Shown here in pieces: positions 5,311 through 41,538 of a stretch of 64,000 nucleotides of DNA. Position 1 is the first letter of the stretch; every line of letters starts with the position of its first letter. The DNA comes from an uncultured Actinomycetes bacterium (lineage in GTDB: Bacteria; Actinomycetota; Thermoleophilia; Gaiellales; Gaiellaceae): the NCBI GenBank assembly GCA_963736835.1, contig CAVTQI010000004.1, forward strand, positions 27,706 through 91,705. The letters run 5' to 3'. The notes under the pieces are model-generated. The model did no database searches, was not told the DNA's origin, and saw nothing but the letters and a program-made list of their open reading frames with translations. The position numbers and the translations under genes were made by a program.

Positions 5311-5985
5311 TTACCGAAAGAGCGTCAGCTCGGGCTCGCGTTCGCCGCGCAGGACGGCCAGATCGACCTCGACGCAGCGGATGTCGCGCGACTCGGCGAG
5401 CGCGACCGCCTGCGGCTTGATCGTCTGCGCCGCGAGCACGCCGCGGCAAGCGGCCTTCGCCGGGTCCTCGCGGATGAAGCCGAGGTAGCGCGTCAGCTGC
5501 TCGACCGCCTCGATCGTCCCGATGCGCTTGATCTCGACCGCGACCCACTCACCGTCCTCGTCCTTGCACATGAGGTCGACCGGGCCGACCTCCGTCGACC
5601 ACTCGCGCTTCACGAGGGTCAGCCGCTCGCCGAGCGCCGACGGCGCCGCCGCCAGCAGCTCCTGCAGGTCGCGCTCGGCGCCGTCCTTCTGCAGCGCCGC
5701 CGACTCCCCCATGTCGTGAACGACGTCGCTCAGCACCTCGACGAGGCGGATCTCGAGGACGTCCTCCGTCTTCGCCTTCCGCACGACGAGCACGTCGCCG
5801 AGCTCCTCGGCGACCGCCGGCCCCGTCATCCAGTTCAGCGGCTTGTAGCCGCCGGCGTCGTCGTGGACGAGCACGGAGCCGTCGGCCTTCAGGATCAGCA
5901 GTCGGACCGCCTCCGGCAGGACGGCGGTCAGGCGACCCGTGTAGCGGACCTCGCAGCGGGCGACGAGCAGGCGCACGATCCGCAC
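5311..5985 (-). CDS. nucS: endonuclease NucS (EndoMS mismatch endonuclease)
   Basis: MRIVRLLVARCEVRYTGRL..LILKADGSVLVHDD..GYKPLNWM..VDLMCKDEDGEWVAVEIKR, full-length 224 aa. Confidence 0.9.
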   Translation of the reverse strand: MRIVRLLVARCEVRYTGRLTAVLPEAVRLLILKADGSVLVHDDAGGYKPLNWMTGPAVAEELGDVLVVRKAKTEDVLEIRLVEVLSDVVHDMGESAALQKDGAERDLQELLAAAPSALGERLTLVKREWSTEVGPVDLMCKDEDGEWVAVEIKRIGTIEAVEQLTRYLGFIREDPAKAACRGVLAAQTIKPQAVALAESRDIRCVEVDLAVLRGEREPELTLFR

Positions 5986-35606: not shown

Positions 35607-36215
35607 CTAGCCGCCGGTCGCAGAGAAGTGCTGGTAGTCGGGCGTGCCGGTCCAGCGGCCGCCCCACTGCCAGCCGACCGACCCGAACGCACGCACGAGC
35701 AGCCCGCCGCGCGCGGCCATCCCCGGCCTGACGTTCGAGCGGTCGAGGAACGCCTTCCCCGCTCGGGGGTGGACGCGTCCGCTTTCCAGGTACGGGTTCT
35801 CGACCGGGTTGACGTCGATCGCCAGGCCGGACGCGTGCACCGACCAGCGGCGGGGGCCGGGCCCGACCGCGTAGCGGCAGTTGAAGGCGGCGGTGTTGTC
35901 GGCCGCGAGCGAGCGCTCGTCGTTCGAGCCGTACGCGGTGATCGGCCGCATGCGGCGGATGGGGAAGCGAGCCCGATAGAGGCGCCTGAAGGCGATCGTC
36001 AGGTCGCCGACGGCGCTCGAGCTGACGACGAGCGTCCCCACGTGCGGCCGGCCATCGAACCCCCAGTAGCCGAGCCGAAGCCGGCGGAGCGAGGACGGCG
36101 CGACCGGGCACCCCGCGTGCCACGAGCTTCCGAGCTGCGCGCGGGTCACGGGTGCAACGGAATGCGTGAACGGCGGGCTCTGGACGGCGAGCAATGCGAG
36201 CAAGGCGAACCCCAT
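35607..36215 (-). CDS. secreted M15-family (VanY-like) D-Ala-D-Ala peptidase
   Basis: Signal peptide, SVHASGLAIDVNP (HxxxxxxD) and PDYQHF metal-ligand motifs. Confidence 0.8.
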   Translation of the reverse strand: MGFALLALLAVQSPPFTHSVAPVTRAQLGSSWHAGCPVAPSSLRRLRLGYWGFDGRPHVGTLVVSSSAVGDLTIAFRRLYRARFPIRRMRPITAYGSNDERSLAADNTAAFNCRYAVGPGPRRWSVHASGLAIDVNPVENPYLESGRVHPRAGKAFLDRSNVRPGMAARGGLLVRAFGSVGWQWGGRWTGTPDYQHFSATGG

Positions 36216-36244
36216 GGCCCATCGAGACTAGTCTGGATGGCCGC

Positions 36245-36955
36245 ATGAAGTGGACCTGCGCCCTTCTCGCCTGCCTCGCGTTCCTTCCTGCCGCTGCGGC
36301 CACCGGCCGTGACGCCGCGCCGCCGTCGTGCCCGGCCACGCTCGCCAACCAGCTCGCCGACACGGGCTCGGCGACCCAGCTCGTCACGGTCGCGTCGCTT
36401 CGAGCGAGCTCGCAGACCGGTGCGCTGCGTGTCTGGGAGAAGCGCGGCGACTGCTGGACGCAGGCGGCGGGGCCGTGGCAGGCGTGGCTCGGGATCCGCG
36501 GCATCTCCGAGCGCAAGCGCGAGGGCGACCTGAAGACCCCGAGCGGGGCCTTCGGAATCCAGCCGCTCATGTTCGGAGTCGGCCCCAACCCGGGTGTCCG
36601 CTACCGCTACCACCGGATCGTCTGCGGCGACTGGTGGGTCGAGGACCCGCGCTCCCGCTTCTACAACCGCTTCCGCCATGTGCCCTGCGGGTCGAGGCCG
36701 CCCTTCCGCGTCACGAGCGAGGACATGTCCGGGTCACCCTCGTCGTACCGGCACCTGGCCGTGATCGACTACAACACGCGCCCGATCGTCCCGGGCCGCG
36801 GGAGCGGGATCTTCCTCCACGTCAGCCACGGGAACGCGACCCTCGGCTGCGTCGCCGTCCCTCTCCCCCAGCTCGTCTGGCTCCTGCGCTGGCTCGACCC
36901 GGCCGATCACCCGTTGATCGTGATCGGGACGCGAAAGTCGATCCGGAAGTTCTAG
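36245..36955 (+). CDS. secreted L,D-transpeptidase (YkuD)-like protein
   Basis: Signal peptide MKWTCALLACLAFLPAAAA. GSGIFLHVSHGNATLGCVAV matches the His...Gly-Cys catalytic motif. Confidence 0.75.
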   Translation: MKWTCALLACLAFLPAAAATGRDAAPPSCPATLANQLADTGSATQLVTVASLRASSQTGALRVWEKRGDCWTQAAGPWQAWLGIRGISERKREGDLKTPSGAFGIQPLMFGVGPNPGVRYRYHRIVCGDWWVEDPRSRFYNRFRHVPCGSRPPFRVTSEDMSGSPSSYRHLAVIDYNTRPIVPGRGSGIFLHVSHGNATLGCVAVPLPQLVWLLRWLDPADHPLIVIGTRKSIRKF

Positions 36956-36965
36956 ACCCTCTGAG

Positions 36966-37090
36966 CCCGAAAACGAAAGCGACCCGCAAGGGGAGGGCGC
37001 GGGCCGCTTTTCTTTTCGATTGCGACCCGCAACGGGGAGGGCGCAGGCCGCGTTCGACGGTTTGTTGTGTTCGGCGGAATTTGCCTTGGC
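36966..37090 (-). ncRNA. 6C-like small RNA candidate (5' end approximate)
   Basis: Minus strand: GCGGCCUGC[GCCCUCCCCGUU]GCGGGUCGC (37051-37022), a 14-nt A-rich spacer, GCGGCCCGC[GCCCUCCCCUU]GCGGGUCGC (37007-36979), then UUUCGUUUUCGGG. G.U wobbles exist only on the minus strand (they are A.C mismatches on plus). Confidence 0.55.
36979..37017 (+). terminator. hairpin + T-tract after the L,D-transpeptidase-like gene (same hairpin as the sRNA terminator, bidirectional)
   Basis: GCGACCCGC-N11-GCGGGCCGC followed by TTTTCTTTTC. Flanked on the other side by GAAAACGAAA. Confidence 0.5.
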
Positions 37091-37109
37091 TCGATGAAAT
37101 CACCGGCTC

Positions 37110-37150
37110 CTAAGGGGAACCTGAACGGCGCCTAAGAAACGGCTAAGAGT
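37110..37150 (-). promoter_or_regulatory. four phased octamers (11-bp period): ACTCTTAG ccg TTTCTTAG gcg CCGTTCAG gtt CCCCTTAG
   Basis: Read on the minus strand. The first octamer contains the stop codon of the 37143-37838 gene. The array ends about 20-60 nt before the 6C-like hairpins. Confidence 0.45.
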
Positions 37151-37838
37151 CGGTGGCGCCCGGCATGCCCCAACCCCCTCGGTCCGGCGGGGCCTGGCGC
37201 CAGTGGAAGCCTCGGCGTTCCATGGGCATTCGCGGCAGAGAGCCGTTGACGATGTCGTCGAGGCGCGACTCGAGCATCTTCAGGCCTTCCTTCGCCTGCG
37301 CCTCGGTGATCACGCCATCCTTGACGGCCCGGTCGGCGGCCTTCGTCGCGCTGTCGAGGATCGCCTTCTTCAGCCCGTCGACCGACTTGTTCTGCGCCTT
37401 TGCGATGTCGGCCAGCGACTGGCCGTTCGCCAGCTTCTGCAGGAGTTGCGGCACCGACAGGCCGAGGTAGTCCGCCGTGGCGGAGAGGTGCTCGTGCGGG
37501 CCGAACGGCATCCCGTGGTGCCCGAAGTCGCCGAAGCGGTGTGGGCCGCCGAAGAAGAGCGGAACCTCGCCGCTCTCGATTCGCGCCTTCATCGCGTCGG
37601 CCTGCGCCTTGGTGATGCGGCCGGCCTTCAGGTCCGCGTCGACCTGGTCGATCGCCGCCGCCTTGGTCGCATCCTGGAGCTTCTCGGTCGAGATGCCGAG
37701 GTGCCCCGCCACCCGTGAGAGGAAGCTGTCGCCTCGCGCCGCCGAGCTCTTCGAGGCGGCGATGGCGCCACCCGCTCCGACCACAAGTGCAAGACCGGCC
37801 GTGAGGGCGAGAACGCGTTTGGAGTCGAGGTTCTTCAT
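37143..37838 (-). CDS. secreted helical protein, unknown function
   Basis: MKNLDSKRVLALTAGLALVVGAGGAIAA signal peptide. Repeated ITKAQADAMKARIESG / ITEAQAKEGLKMLESR helices. Lies next to htrA. Confidence 0.6.
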   Translation of the reverse strand: MKNLDSKRVLALTAGLALVVGAGGAIAASKSSAARGDSFLSRVAGHLGISTEKLQDATKAAAIDQVDADLKAGRITKAQADAMKARIESGEVPLFFGGPHRFGDFGHHGMPFGPHEHLSATADYLGLSVPQLLQKLANGQSLADIAKAQNKSVDGLKKAILDSATKAADRAVKDGVITEAQAKEGLKMLESRLDDIVNGSLPRMPMERRGFHWRQAPPDRGGWGMPGATDS

Positions 37839-37916: not shown

Positions 37917-39083
37917 TTACTGCTGCGGGATCGTCGCCGGACGCGTGGCGAGCTTCACGTCGACCGTGTGGCTGTCGCCGTTTCGCCAGTAGGTGATCTT
38001 CATGGTGTCGCCCGGCTGGTGCGCGTCGACTTTCTGCTGGACGTCTTCGGACGTCGTGACCTTCTCGCCGTCGATGGCGGTGATCACGTCGCCTCCCGTC
38101 GGGTACTGGTCGCCGTCGACCGTCTTGGTGCCGGTCGCGCCCTTGAGGCCCGCCTTGTCGGCCGGAGTGTTCGACCTGACGCTCGCGAGCTCGACGCCGG
38201 CGACGAGCTTCAGCTGGTCGGCCACCGACTCGGGGATCTGCTGCACGGAGACGCCGAGGTAAGCGTGCTCGACCTTCCCGCTGCCGATCAGCGTCTCCGC
38301 GATCGACTTGACGGTGTTGGACGGGATCGCGAACCCGACGCCGTCGCTGCCGCCCGAGTCGCTGCGGATCTGCGAGTTGACACCGATCACGTTGCCGTTG
38401 ATGTCGAGGAGCGGGCCGCCGGAGTTGCCGTGGTTGATGGCGGCGTCGGTCTGGATCGAGTCGTTGATGGTGAAGTTGTTCGGCGCCTCCATCTGGCGGT
38501 GAAGTGCGCTCACGATTCCGCTCGTCACGGTCTCCTCGAGGCCGAACGGGCTGCCGATGGCGATCGCCGTGTCACCGACCTGCACGCTGTTCGAATTGCC
38601 GAACTGGATCGGGTGCAGGACGGATTCCGGCGCGTCGACCTTGATCACGCCGAGGTCGGTGGAGGGATCGGTCCCGACGACGGAAGCCTTGTAGGTCGAG
38701 CCGTTCCAGAACTGGACGGAGACCGACTTCGCCCCGTCCACCACGTGGTCGTTCGTGACGATATGGCCGTCGGAGTCGATGACGAATCCGGAGCCCTGTG
38801 ATTTCTGCTGCTGCTGCTGCCCGGGCGTGCCGAACGATGGGCTCGCTTGGTCGGAGGTGACGGTGATCTCCACGATCGCCCGGTAGGCGTCGCGGTAGAC
38901 CTGGCCGACCGTCAGCGGAGTCGTCTGGGCCGCCGGCTCGGAAGCACCGACCGGCACGGAGCGGATTACTGTGGTCGATTTCGACCCGAAGGTCGAGTAG
39001 GCGACCGCGCCGGCCCCCGCGCCCAGGACGAGGGTGGCGATCAGGATCATTGCGATCATGGGGATGCGGGAGCGGCTGTTCAT
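37917..39083 (-). CDS. htrA: HtrA/DegP-family (S1C) serine protease with PDZ domain
   Basis: N-terminal TM anchor, TNDHVV, DLGVIKV, GNSGGPLLD catalytic triad context, C-terminal PDZ GDVITAIDGEKV. Alternative ATG at 39113. Confidence 0.9.
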   Translation of the reverse strand: MNSRSRIPMIAMILIATLVLGAGAGAVAYSTFGSKSTTVIRSVPVGASEPAAQTTPLTVGQVYRDAYRAIVEITVTSDQASPSFGTPGQQQQQKSQGSGFVIDSDGHIVTNDHVVDGAKSVSVQFWNGSTYKASVVGTDPSTDLGVIKVDAPESVLHPIQFGNSNSVQVGDTAIAIGSPFGLEETVTSGIVSALHRQMEAPNNFTINDSIQTDAAINHGNSGGPLLDINGNVIGVNSQIRSDSGGSDGVGFAIPSNTVKSIAETLIGSGKVEHAYLGVSVQQIPESVADQLKLVAGVELASVRSNTPADKAGLKGATGTKTVDGDQYPTGGDVITAIDGEKVTTSEDVQQKVDAHQPGDTMKITYWRNGDSHTVDVKLATRPATIPQQ

Positions 39084-39138
39084 CTGGTTCCTTTCGGATT
39101 TGCTTGCTCTCATGAGAGCAGCACTTGCCCTTACCCTG

Positions 39139-39158
39139 CCTGAGAGTGGGCTAAGAGT
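39139..39158 (-). promoter_or_regulatory. 8-3-8 direct repeat ACTCTTAG ccc ACTCTCAG in the divergent htrA / response-regulator promoter region
   Basis: Plus strand reads CCTGAGAGTgggCTAAGAGT. It lies 56 nt from the htrA ATG 39083 and 59 nt from the regulator ATG 39217. A further TTCTTAG lies on the plus strand at 39176-39182. Confidence 0.5.
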
Positions 39159-39216
39159 TCCGTTAAAGAAATGTTTTCTTAGCTGGCATTAACAGTCCTC
39201 ACGCAACAATTACCGC

Positions 39217-39900
39217 ATGAAGATCCTGGTAGTCGACGATGAACGGGCCGTCCGCGAGTCGCTCCGCCGAGCGCTCGAGCTGGAGGGCTACGAGATCGAG
39301 CTCGCGGCCGACGGGCGCGAGGCGCTCTACCGTCTGGAAGGCGACTCGGAGCCCGACGCGATGATCCTCGACGTGCTCATGCCCGGCGTGGACGGGCTCG
39401 AGGTGTGCAGGCGCCTGCGAGGGAGCGGGAGCAAGCTTCCCGTGCTGATGCTGACCGCGCGCACGCAGGTCGAGGACCGAGTCGAAGGGCTCGACGCCGG
39501 CGCCGACGACTACGTGACGAAGCCGTTCGCACTGGACGAGCTTCTCGCGCGCGTGCGAGCGCTCCTCCGCCGGACGGCCGACGAGGAGGGCGAGAGCGCA
39601 GACCTGATCCGCTTCGCCGACCTCGAGCTCGACCCCGCGACCCGGGAGGTCACGCGCGGCGGGCGCCCGATCGAGCTCACGCGCACCGAGTTCTCGCTCC
39701 TCGAGCTCTTCATGCGCAACCCACGGCAGGTGCTCACCCGGACGATCATTTTCGAGCGGGTCTGGGGATACGACTTCGGGTACGCGTCGAACTCGCTCGA
39801 CGTGTACATCGGCTACCTGCGGCGGAAGACCGAAGCCGAGGGCGAGCCTCGTCTGATCCAGACGGTTCGCGGCGTCGGCTACGCGCTCCGGGAGTCATGA
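39217..39900 (+). CDS. OmpR-family response regulator (MprA/MtrA-like)
   Basis: [37 protein letters not shown], winged helix [21 protein letters not shown]. Confidence 0.9.
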
Positions 39901-41225
39901 GCTTTCGCGCACGCATTGCGCTCGTGGCGGCCGGCGCCGTCGCGCTGGCCGTCGTGGCCGCTTCGGGCGTCGTCTATCTCGTCGTCAAGGATCAGCTCTA
40001 CTCGAGCATTGACGCGTCCCTGCGAAGCAGCATGGAGCGGATTCAGCACGGCCCACCCTTCGACTTCGCCGACGGGCCGCCACAGCCCGGAGTCTTCGGC
40101 GGCTACCCGCAGGCGGTGCGCCGGGACGGGGTCACGTACACGCGGCGCGGGCAGAACCTGACGCTGCCCGTCGACAAGCACGTCTTGCGCGTGGCCCGGG
40201 GCCAGGACGGCACGTATCTCGCGAACGCGAATGTCGAGAACGACCACGTCCGGGTGATCACGTTCCCGTACCAGCCAGGGTTCGCGGTCCAGATCGCGCG
40301 GCCGCTCGACGACACCGACCGTGCGCTCTCCAGGATCAAGGCCTTGCTCTTCTTCATCGCCGCCGGCGGGATCCTCATCGCCGCCGGGCTCGGCCTGGCC
40401 GTCTCGCGCGCAGCTTTGATACCCGTGCGGCGGCTCACGCAGGCGACCGAGACGGTCACCGAGACCCGCGACCTCTCGGAGCGCATCGAGGCCGGCGGGA
40501 AGGACGAGCTGGGGCGCCTCGCGACGAGTTTCAACGCGATGCTCGCCGCGCTCGAGGAATCCGACCGCGCGCGGAGCCAGCTCGTCGCGGACGCCTCCCA
40601 CGAGCTCCGCACGCCTCTGACGAGCCTCCGGACGAACATCGAGGTGCTCGCGAGCGACCGCCAGCTGCCGCCGGGCGAGCGCGAGCGCCTGCTCTCGGAC
40701 GTGATCGAGCAGCTCGGCGAGATGACGACGCTCATCTCCGAGCTGATCGAGCTCGCGCGCGGGGAACAGCATCGCGTGGAGCCGGAGGACGTCCGGCTCG
40801 ACCTCGTCACGGCCGGGGCCGTCGAACGGACGAAGCGCAACCGGCCGGGTGTCGAGTTCAAGACGGACCTGCACGAGTCGCTCGTCTACGGAGTCCCGGA
40901 GACGCTCGATCGCGCGCTGGGGAACCTGCTCGACAACGCGGCCAAGTGGAGCCCGCCCGACGGCGAGGTCGAGGTCTCGGTGCGCAACGCCGAGGTGACG
41001 GTCCGCGACCACGGGCCGGGGATCGACGACGAGGACCTGCCGTACGTCTTCGACCGCTTCTACCGCGCCCAGTCCGCCCGTAGCCTTCCGGGCTCGGGGC
41101 TCGGGCTCGCGATCGTGCGCCAGGTCGCGCAGGCGCACGGCGGGACGGTCGTCGCCGAGCGGGCCGAGGGAGGCGGAACGATCATGCGCTTCCGGCTGAA
41201 CGGCGCCGCCGAAGACAACTCTTAG
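39897..41225 (+). CDS. sensor histidine kinase (MprB-like)
   Basis: ATGA overlap with the regulator. 2 TM + HAMP. H-box [39 protein letters not shown]. Confidence 0.9.
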
Positions 41226-41261
41226 CCAGTTCTTACCGCGGGTTAACCCGCTTCTCAGGGA
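41218..41261 (+). promoter_or_regulatory. four phased octamers ACTCTTAG cca GTTCTTAC cgc GGGTTAAC ccg CTTCTCAG
   Basis: The first octamer contains the kinase stop codon. The array ends 20 nt before ATG 41281. It includes the perfect palindrome CGGGTTAACCCG (41239-41250). Confidence 0.45.
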
Positions 41262-41280
41262 GCGCGGCTTCCATGTCCGC

Positions 41281-41538
41281 ATGGCTACCACCAAGAACTC
41301 CAGAATCGCGGCGGCGAAGGAGCGGGCCGAGCAGGCGAAGACGCTGATCCTCGCCGCGGCGCTGGTCGCCTTCTTCGCCGCGATGGCGATGGAGCGCGGC
41401 GCGCATGCTTCCTCGACCTCGGGCGGGACCAGCCCCGCCGTCTCGTCCGACGAGTCGGACGACGGCTCCGGCTTCTTCGACGACGGCGGACTGGCACCGG
41501 CACAGGGGCCGCCCTCGACCTCGACGGGGACCTCGTGA
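41281..41538 (+). CDS. small single-TM protein with Ser/Gly/Asp-rich tail
   Basis: 85 aa, TM LILAAALVAFFAAMAM, tail SSTSGGTSPAVSSDESDDGSGFFDDGG. Stop overlaps the ApbE start (GTGA). Confidence 0.45.
   Translation: MATTKNSRIAAAKERAEQAKTLILAAALVAFFAAMAMERGAHASSTSGGTSPAVSSDESDDGSGFFDDGGLAPAQGPPSTSTGTS

Follow-up and report, generated by a model that had tools for sequence, protein, structure and literature searches.

A candidate small RNA gene behind regulator-type boxes at an htrA locus of Gaiellales, built like 6C and most likely a family of its own

Introduction

Between the convergent DUF2680 and YkuD genes of an uncultured Gaiellales bacterium, 187 nt separate the two stop codons, and the question raised by this gap is whether it holds only the terminators of its neighbours or an RNA gene of its own. 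The gap lies in a 64-kb stretch of DNA, referred to below as the window, from a metagenome-assembled genome (MAG) lineage of deep-branching actinobacteria. An earlier reading made from the letters of the window alone (the sequence-only reading), which had put the gap at 188 nt, proposed that the minus strand encodes a member of the 6C small RNA (sRNA) family wired to an envelope-stress two-component system. In this study, the locus was compared with 83 related loci. Positions 37150-36966 of the minus strand are interpreted as an undescribed sRNA gene, about 120 nt long, that belongs to the regulon of the neighbouring MprAB-like two-component system. The full mechanism proposed below is given a probability of roughly 0.65; that the minus strand yields a small transcript driven by regulator boxes is held to be more probable still. 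The RNA most likely represents a new locus-specific family in soil actinobacteria (Gaiellales), built like 6C. Thus, the sRNA behind regulator-type boxes common with the htrA locus gained comparative support as a gene under the neighbouring system, and the 6C membership did not.

The regulatory RNAs of actinobacteria are little understood, and only a few have been tied to a transcription factor. The 6C RNA is defined by two stem-loops, each with at least six conserved cytosines in its loop (PMC5014011, PMC6486639), and in mycobacteria these C-rich loops were shown to act on ribosome-binding sites rich in G, with no need of a chaperone (PMC6486639). A literature search found no sRNA assigned to an envelope- or secretion-stress system of the MprAB, CutRS or CssRS type, and none reported in the MprAB-htrA/pepD regulon.

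Results

The related loci were collected by three routes: 33 through the DUF2680 protein in genome collections, 13 by exact protein look-ups, and 37 from metagenomes, the last with an exact 21-mer of the hairpin. They carry 46 unique versions of a module with a fixed order, namely four tTCTTAG boxes, 10-11 nt, a hexamer, a leader, one or two hairpins with C-rich loops, and a U-tract. The anatomy of this module, its conservation, the promoter architecture that it has in common with protein genes, its strand asymmetry and its independence of the neighbouring genes are established by the comparison. The sequence-only reading had named as its own refutation a hairpin that proves to be a generic terminator or repetitive extragenic palindromic (REP) element found all over the genome. 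Many dispersed copies in unrelated contexts were not found: the 64 kb contain just two copies of the hairpin sequence, it never stands outside the module in the 46 loci retrieved by protein, and 35 of the 37 metagenome matches carry the module, the other two being chance matches in unrelated DNA. Because the hairpin is confined to the module, a generic repeat is rejected.

The predicted RNA consists of two nearly identical minus-strand hairpins, 14 nt apart, with a U-rich tail after the second, as had been described before. The seven cytosines earlier counted in each loop are present in both loops as CCCUCCCC, in which the run of C is interrupted and its longest part is four. Folding of the minus strand, which had also been named as the folding strand, is stronger than that of its own shuffles (z = -2.6, against 0.06 for the plus strand). 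Moreover, pair 4 of the terminal-hairpin stem is G-C in 25 of the 46 unique modules, G.U in 11, A-U in 10 and A.C in none, a pattern that would be expected if the transcribed strand is the folding strand. The leader has the consensus GAACAC..CCGUCGAA across the module, with ACAC and GUCGA invariant or nearly so (alignments A2 and A3); in one-hairpin relatives this stretch reads CACUCCAAUCCGUCGAA.

Hairpin 2 and its loop are invariant in the two-hairpin members (alignment A2), the core being unchanged in 18 two-hairpin sequences, and GCGCCCUCCCCUUGC does not vary among the loci found through proteins only, which are free of the bias of the 21-mer. In four sequences, the extended stem of hairpin 2 carries a compensatory change from A-U to C-G (columns 110/142 of A2), and hairpin 1 of L075 a double change from C-G to U-A; overall, pairing is kept in 94.9% of cells, with double changes at two pairs. 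Where the stem of hairpin 1 has been rebuilt, the C-rich loop was kept (UCCCCCUUU in L035/36, UCCUCCCCUUUU in L075 and GACCCCCCUU in L077, the last a true C6 loop). Judged from these alignments, the conservation of the loops is far in excess of what termination would need. Close relatives differ by indels of 1-2 nt in the leader and module (A2), which excludes a coding function.

Hairpin 2 has the form of an intrinsic terminator, a G+C-rich 13-bp stem followed by UUUCGUUUU, and is predicted to act bidirectionally as the terminator of both the sRNA and the DUF2680 mRNA. Since the linker between the hairpins reads as a U-tract (UUUUCUUUUCGAUU) on the plus strand, it would also serve the YkuD gene, a role that the sequence-only reading had not mentioned.

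Upstream of the hairpins, the four octamers reported earlier do stand at an exact spacing of 11 bp (37150-37110, minus strand), and the first of them holds the DUF2680 stop codon (37145-37143), a point absent from that report. A degenerate four-box pattern has a single match in the window, and 100 shuffles gave none. The motif was correctly said to recur in the htrA / response-regulator intergenic region, where ACTCTTAG (39158-39151) and ACTCTCAG (39147-39140) are flanked by weaker boxes. A third array opens on the stop codon of the kinase gene, so that box 1 overlaps a stop codon there too. The array is present in all 46 unique sRNA modules. When 44 sRNA arrays and 77 arrays before protein genes were aligned on the first box, both sets had the same architecture: four tTCTTAG boxes in 11-bp phase, a spacer of 10-11 nt, and TG.TT(C/T)(C/T)AT. 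The hexamer of the sRNA modules, T(T/C)(T/C)(C/G)AT, has the consensus TGaTTCcAT at a fixed distance, and the consensus before protein genes is tGcTt.caT. Taking the window and the 77 arrays of related loci together, this layout is found in front of htrA, of the DUF2680 gene and of the gene that follows the kinase.

In many of the protein-gene arrays (those of the DUF2680 gene or of the gene after the kinase), an ATG stands 6-7 nt past the hexamer. Examples of this type are TTCTATGAGACGCATGAAGAAC, which encodes the MKN..SKRAL N-terminus of a DUF2680 protein, and, after the kinase gene of the window, TTCCATGTCCGCATGGCT. Leaderless mRNAs are common in Actinobacteria, and because the spacing fits them, the hexamer is taken as a -10 element with the start of transcription 7-8 nt after it. 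By this rule the sRNA is predicted to start at 37087/37086 (minus strand), and a start there would give a transcript of about 120 nt, reaching to about 36968. Likewise, the third array predicts a leaderless, regulator-dependent small-protein gene (MATTKNSRIAAAKERAEQ...) after the kinase.

The MprA motif of Corynebacterium glutamicum, TKTTAAGAAM, was derived by electrophoretic mobility shift assay (EMSA) and MEME, and the MprA system of that species also controls htrA (PMC12113857). The tTCTTAA/G box is the reverse complement of this motif, and the helically phased direct repeats over the -35 region that mark an MprA-like promoter, common to the genes of the regulator's own locus, are found here as four boxes at 11 bp. 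The response regulator encoded next to it, MprA-like and of the OmpR/PhoB family, is therefore predicted to bind the array. The regulator (39217-39900) received no equivalog assignment by NCBIfam. An identity with CutR of Streptomyces, which is also htrA-linked, was rejected, since the CutR motif TAWATAAA (PMC12802291) is unlike the box.

The wider family, which the sequence-only reading had missed, occurs in three gene arrangements. In arrangement A, that of the window, a two-hairpin module follows the DUF2680 gene, and the overlap of box 1 with the stop codon gives the DUF2680 proteins the ending ..PGA(S/T)DS*. In arrangement B, a one-hairpin module lies between htrA and the DUF2680 gene, behind a separate, long palindromic htrA terminator and directly before another array, which belongs to the DUF2680 gene. 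In arrangement C (L054, L063, L074 and L076), a one-hairpin module comes after an unrelated gene and the terminator of that gene. One-hairpin members, with a predicted RNA of about 82 nt, make up 28 of the 46 unique versions. Arrangement A is kept with three kinds of downstream neighbour, namely the convergent YkuD gene, a same-strand gene for a protein of 174 amino acids (aa) plus a DUF421 gene, and another convergent gene. Furthermore, the DUF2680 open reading frame (ORF) is almost wholly deleted in L077 (1179-1420, minus strand), where the htrA stop codon and a hairpin are followed, at about 40 nt, by the complete sRNA module. A module that keeps its place while its neighbours change, and that persists in L077, is taken to be neither a generic repeat nor a mere terminator. 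The idea of a lineage-specific insertion was dropped, since in relatives the sRNA lies instead between the genes for HtrA and the DUF2680 protein.

A covariance model built from the one-hairpin RNAs (R1) scores promoter-driven genes at 80-114 bits and the two hairpins of the window at 53 and 42 bits. R1 also matches the 3' untranslated region (3'UTR) directly past the DUF2680 stop codon in arrangement-B genomes (30-42 bits), where the sequence reads ..CACCCUCC(U/G)AUCCGU.. and a terminator hairpin follows. This promoter-less paralogue stands in genomes that also have a promoter-driven copy (L002:2698-2780, L004:6705-6782, L001:6686-6768, L082:996-1076 and others). More distant relatives have only a C/U-rich run (CCCUCCCC, CCUCCUCC) between the DUF2680 stop codon and the terminator. 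Among the genome-collection loci that lack the two-hairpin module, 19 of 30 have a CCUCC-type run within 45 nt past the stop codon, against a background of 13% in 45-nt windows of the same loci; as the loci are related, the comparison is not a statistic on independent samples.

The coordinates of the locus are collected in Table 1. The longest ORF of htrA begins at 39113, and its ATG overlaps the predicted -10 hexamer TCTCAT (39117-39112); the homologues are 384-390 aa long, in agreement with a start at 39083. For these two reasons the ATG at 39083 (minus strand) is probably the real start.

Table 1. Features of the locus, by position in the window
Feature	Position	Strand	Remarks
YkuD-type L,D-transpeptidase gene	36194-36955	+	convergent with the sRNA; would terminate at hairpin 2 in the plus-strand reading
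U-rich tail UUUCGUUUUCGGG	36966-36978	-	predicted RNA 3' end about 36968
Hairpin 2, core GCGGCCCGC(GCCCUCCCCUU)GCGGGUCGC	36979-37007	-	extended to 36976-37010
Hairpin 2, extended: 13-bp stem AAAGCGGCCCGCG/UGCGGGUCGCUUU, loop CCCUCCCCU	36976-37010	-	from folding and alignment
A-rich linker AAUCGAAAAGAAAA, 14 nt	37008-37021	-	plus-strand reading: U-tract for the convergent YkuD transcript
Hairpin 1 GCGGCCUGC(GCCCUCCCCGUU)GCGGGUCGC	37022-37051	-	9-bp stem with two G.U pairs, loop GCCCUCCCCGUU; no U-tract behind
Leader with CGAACAC ... CCGUCGAAC (37074-37052)	37052-37085	-	predicted mostly single-stranded; alignments A2, A3
Predicted transcription start (A/A)	37086-37087	-	from the leaderless-gene rule
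-10-like hexamer TTTCAT	37094-37099	-	10 nt past the fourth box; GGTGA before the hexamer also conserved
Four-octamer array ACTCTTAG (37150-37143), TTTCTTAG (37139-37132), CCGTTCAG (37128-37121), CCCCTTAG (37117-37110)	37110-37150	-	exact 11-bp spacing
DUF2680 gene, secreted all-helical protein, 231 aa	37143-37838	-	upstream of the sRNA; 3' end bears the predicted sRNA promoter; sRNA terminator shared
htrA, trypsin-like protease with PDZ domain	37917-39083	-	probable true start ATG 39083, preceded by GAAAGGAA
htrA promoter: boxes TTCTTTAA, ACTCTTAG, ACTCTCAG, GGGTAAGG, 11 nt, TCTCAT	39112-39170	-	from the pattern and the alignment of arrays
Response regulator (39217-39900) and histidine kinase (39897-41225)	39217-41225	+	divergent from htrA; OmpR/PhoB type and HAMP/HisKA
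Third array: ACTCTTAG, GTTCTTAC, GGGTTAAC, CTTCTCAG, then 10 nt, TTCCAT, 6 nt, ATG	41218-41283	+	boxes 41218-41258; ATG 41281

On the minus strand, the DUF2680 gene and then htrA lie upstream of the sRNA. Between these two genes, the window has a G+C-rich hairpin without a U-tract (37903-37876, minus strand), and a -10-like TGGTTCGAT (37864-37856, minus strand) is kept before the DUF2680 gene; the four boxes, present at this place in L037, L044 and L046, are lost. One-hairpin genomes (L001 at about 5755-5792, L002-L004, L007, L018, L048, L050, L052 and others) have a 34-nt near-perfect palindrome after htrA, GACATGTCCCAGGG-NNNN-CCCTGGGACATGTC. The palindrome is strongly conserved in sequence, as a plain terminator usually is not, and could be a protein-binding site. 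In L042 (1400-2368), L044 (1088-2058), L075 and L083, the sRNA terminator is separated from the YkuD gene by the inserted gene for the 174-aa protein, which belongs to no Pfam family, and a DUF421/YetF-type gene.

The N-terminus of the DUF2680 protein resembles a signal peptide, and its two [IL]TxxQ motifs (ITKAQ and ITEAQ, at residues of about 75-90 and 175-190 counted from ATG 37838) recall the LTXXQ of CpxP/Spy. A kinship with CpxP/Spy was not supported by sequence or fold searches: the protein had no match among PDB sequences and none to Pfam LTXXQ even at E = 10, and with its poor AlphaFold model (mean pLDDT, the predicted local distance difference test score, 53.8) Foldseek returned no match at E < 0.6.

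Discussion

From these features we infer that the regulator binds the array, that transcription starts at the predicted site, and that the RNA accumulates and pairs in trans with its targets. The phosphorylated response regulator would bind the four tTCTTAG boxes in their 11-bp phase, with the last box over the -35 region, and would recruit RNA polymerase to the weak TTTCAT -10 element. Transcription would run from about 37087/37086 to the hairpin-2 terminator at about 36968, giving an RNA of about 120 nt with a single-stranded leader and two hairpins, each presenting CCCUCCCC in its loop. Because box 1 overlaps the DUF2680 stop codon and no other terminator lies between, this RNA would also be the 3'UTR of the htrA-DUF2680 mRNA, that is, a type-I 3'UTR sRNA with its own promoter and a terminator shared with the upstream mRNA; the first hairpin downstream of the stop codon is indeed hairpin 1. 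The C-rich loops, together with a CACUCCAAUCC leader in relatives, may pair with G-rich ribosome-binding sites and lower translation under envelope or secretion stress, a proposal that parallels the mode of action of 6C in mycobacteria (PMC6486639). The complementarity of the loops to GGAGG-type ribosome-binding sites, as put forward in the sequence-only reading, agrees with their C-rich, anti-Shine-Dalgarno type.

Several explanations without such a gene have to be weighed. The region could be a tandem intrinsic terminator and nothing more, serving the htrA-DUF2680 operon and YkuD from both directions, with the octamers as a decoy, a roadblock or an autoregulatory site and no separate RNA. 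Hairpin 2 does lie between convergent genes, preceded by an A-tract and followed by a U-tract, and in more distant relatives one plain terminator is found at the same position. However, termination does not constrain a loop, yet the 11-nt loop is invariant across lineages at about 75% protein identity; hairpin 1 has no U-tract behind it; the layout of boxes and hexamer is that of real gene promoters; one-hairpin modules come after a separate terminator of the upstream gene; and the module outlasts both the deletion of DUF2680 in L077 and the changes of downstream neighbour. This explanation is therefore held to be improbable. An RNA made solely by processing of the DUF2680 mRNA 3'UTR, as CpxQ is from cpxP, with the box array serving another purpose, is also given little probability. 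It draws on the promoter-less second copy past the DUF2680 stop codon in one-hairpin genomes and on the CCUCC-type runs in 19 of 30 DUF2680 3'UTRs, but the lineage of the window has a complete promoter module between the stop codon and the RNA body, L077 has no upstream ORF to be processed from, and both routes may coexist. A generic REP-like repeat, a small-peptide gene or a DNA-level protein-binding palindrome is very improbable. The near identity of the two hairpin copies and a 93-codon ORF that spans the region (36822-37103, minus strand) would suit such readings, but there are only two copies in the 64 kb and elsewhere always the same locus context, the indels of close relatives break any frame, and the G.U / A.C asymmetry suggests that it is the RNA that functions; the REP and small-peptide readings were rejected on copy number, module-only context and these frame-breaking indels.

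The membership in 6C claimed before (RF01066; B11 in mycobacteria, cgb_03605 in C. glutamicum) deserves closer comparison. The RNA resembles 6C in its actinobacterial host (the closest homologous loci by DUF2680 protein are in Gaiellaceae, Gaiellales and Actinomycetota MAGs), a length of about 80-120 nt, two stem-loops with C-rich loops in the window, an inner stem CCCGC/GCGGG with a C-rich loop that recalls hairpin 2 of the 6C consensus, and a likely chaperone-free pairing with G-rich ribosome-binding sites, which for the present RNA is a prediction. Moreover, 6C ranks among its top Rfam matches. However, the Rfam 6C model, the check proposed with that claim, gave 24.7 bits against a gathering score of 47, and the best value among 12 related loci was 26.9 bits (L077). 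The C-runs are broken by U, the linker is 14-18 nt long compared with about 0 in the 6C model, the 5' leader is conserved, and more than half of the unique members have one hairpin. The 6C RNA of C. glutamicum is constitutive, with a strong housekeeping SigA/SigB promoter (PMC5014011), in contrast to the regulator-box promoter and the htrA two-component locus to which the present RNA is tied. Unpaired C-rich stretches are, in addition, frequent in actinobacterial sRNAs (PMC6486639). A scan of the whole window found no Rfam family at its gathering score, and the best match was alphaproteobacterial ar14 (RF02344; gathering score 58.8), which reached 26.4 bits in the window and 22.5 bits in L034.

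The ar14 or 'cuckoo' RNAs, presumably including NfeR1 and the CcsR-type RNAs, likewise have hairpins with CCUCCUCCC-type anti-Shine-Dalgarno loops and a terminator at the end. Unlike the present RNA, they belong to another phylum, and the likeness is one of convergent design in which homology is not demonstrable. Because ar14 from that phylum scores about as high as 6C, the resemblance to 6C is also attributed to a shared design, and a true but divergent 6C orthologue is considered unlikely. The failing score, the frequent single hairpin and the different wiring together argue for a new family of a known kind rather than for 6C.

Some observations weigh against an sRNA gene of this kind. Retrieval of part of the set with the hairpin 21-mer biases loop conservation in those loci, and hairpin 2 is needed in any case as the terminator of both convergent genes. 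Since the hairpins hardly vary, covariation is weak: its score of 0.103, compared with 0.081 in shuffles, was reached in 8 of the 500 shuffles. The second position of the -10-like hexamer is not the canonical A, and neither a simple sigma-70 scan nor a terminator scan returned anything in 36800-37300; the empty sigma-70 scan fits a weak, activator-dependent promoter, and the terminator scanner probably misses hairpin 2 since it is limited to loops of 3-8 nt and this loop has 9 nt. Furthermore, on crude gene calls and within the neighbourhoods covered, neither RNAduplex runs of the loop with every plausible start region in the window nor a survey of GGGGAGGG-type Shine-Dalgarno sites before ORFs in all loci pointed to a recurrent or conserved target.

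The setting of the proposed sRNA gene has counterparts in known systems. As in the MprAB-htrA/pepD systems of Corynebacterium and Mycobacterium, an OmpR-family regulator and its kinase adjoin an HtrA-like protease, although NCBIfam assigns the regulator here to no equivalog. CpxQ, MicL and DapZ are reportedly 3'UTR-embedded envelope-stress sRNAs of enterobacteria. These RNAs are alike in lying at the 3' end of a stress-regulon gene with a shared terminator, in a regulon that is under an envelope-stress regulator and includes the HtrA/DegP protease. In the family described here, type I, with its own promoter as in MicL and DapZ, occurs beside type II, a 3'UTR form that lacks a promoter as CpxQ does. 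It has, however, no sequence relationship to them, and a CpxP/Spy likeness of the DUF2680 protein is not demonstrable.

The comparison of loci suggests that an older, 3'UTR-embedded anti-Shine-Dalgarno element acquired its own promoter and a duplicated hairpin in the lineage of the window. A reading that goes further, and is held to be improbable, sees in the family the birth of a separate sRNA gene, with a C-rich anti-Shine-Dalgarno run in the DUF2680 3'UTR of distant relatives as the first stage, then the promoter-less copy, then boxes over the stop codon with a duplicated hairpin as in the window, and then the free-standing one-hairpin gene. On this reading the family may also be a deep-branching (Thermoleophilia) relative of 6C; were it so, 6C-type RNAs would have begun within an MprAB-type envelope-stress regulon.

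If the proposed gene is real, it would link an sRNA to an envelope-stress system through an unusually clear promoter signature. To our knowledge, Actinobacteria lack Hfq, and the RNA would be an actinobacterial counterpart, without this chaperone, of the enterobacterial CpxQ, MicL and OmrA/B. The 3'UTR copy, the promoter within the end of an ORF and the stand-alone gene form a natural series in which the origin of sRNA genes may be studied, and the rule of boxes plus hexamer, leaderless genes included, could allow prediction of the entire regulon across genomes of Gaiellales.

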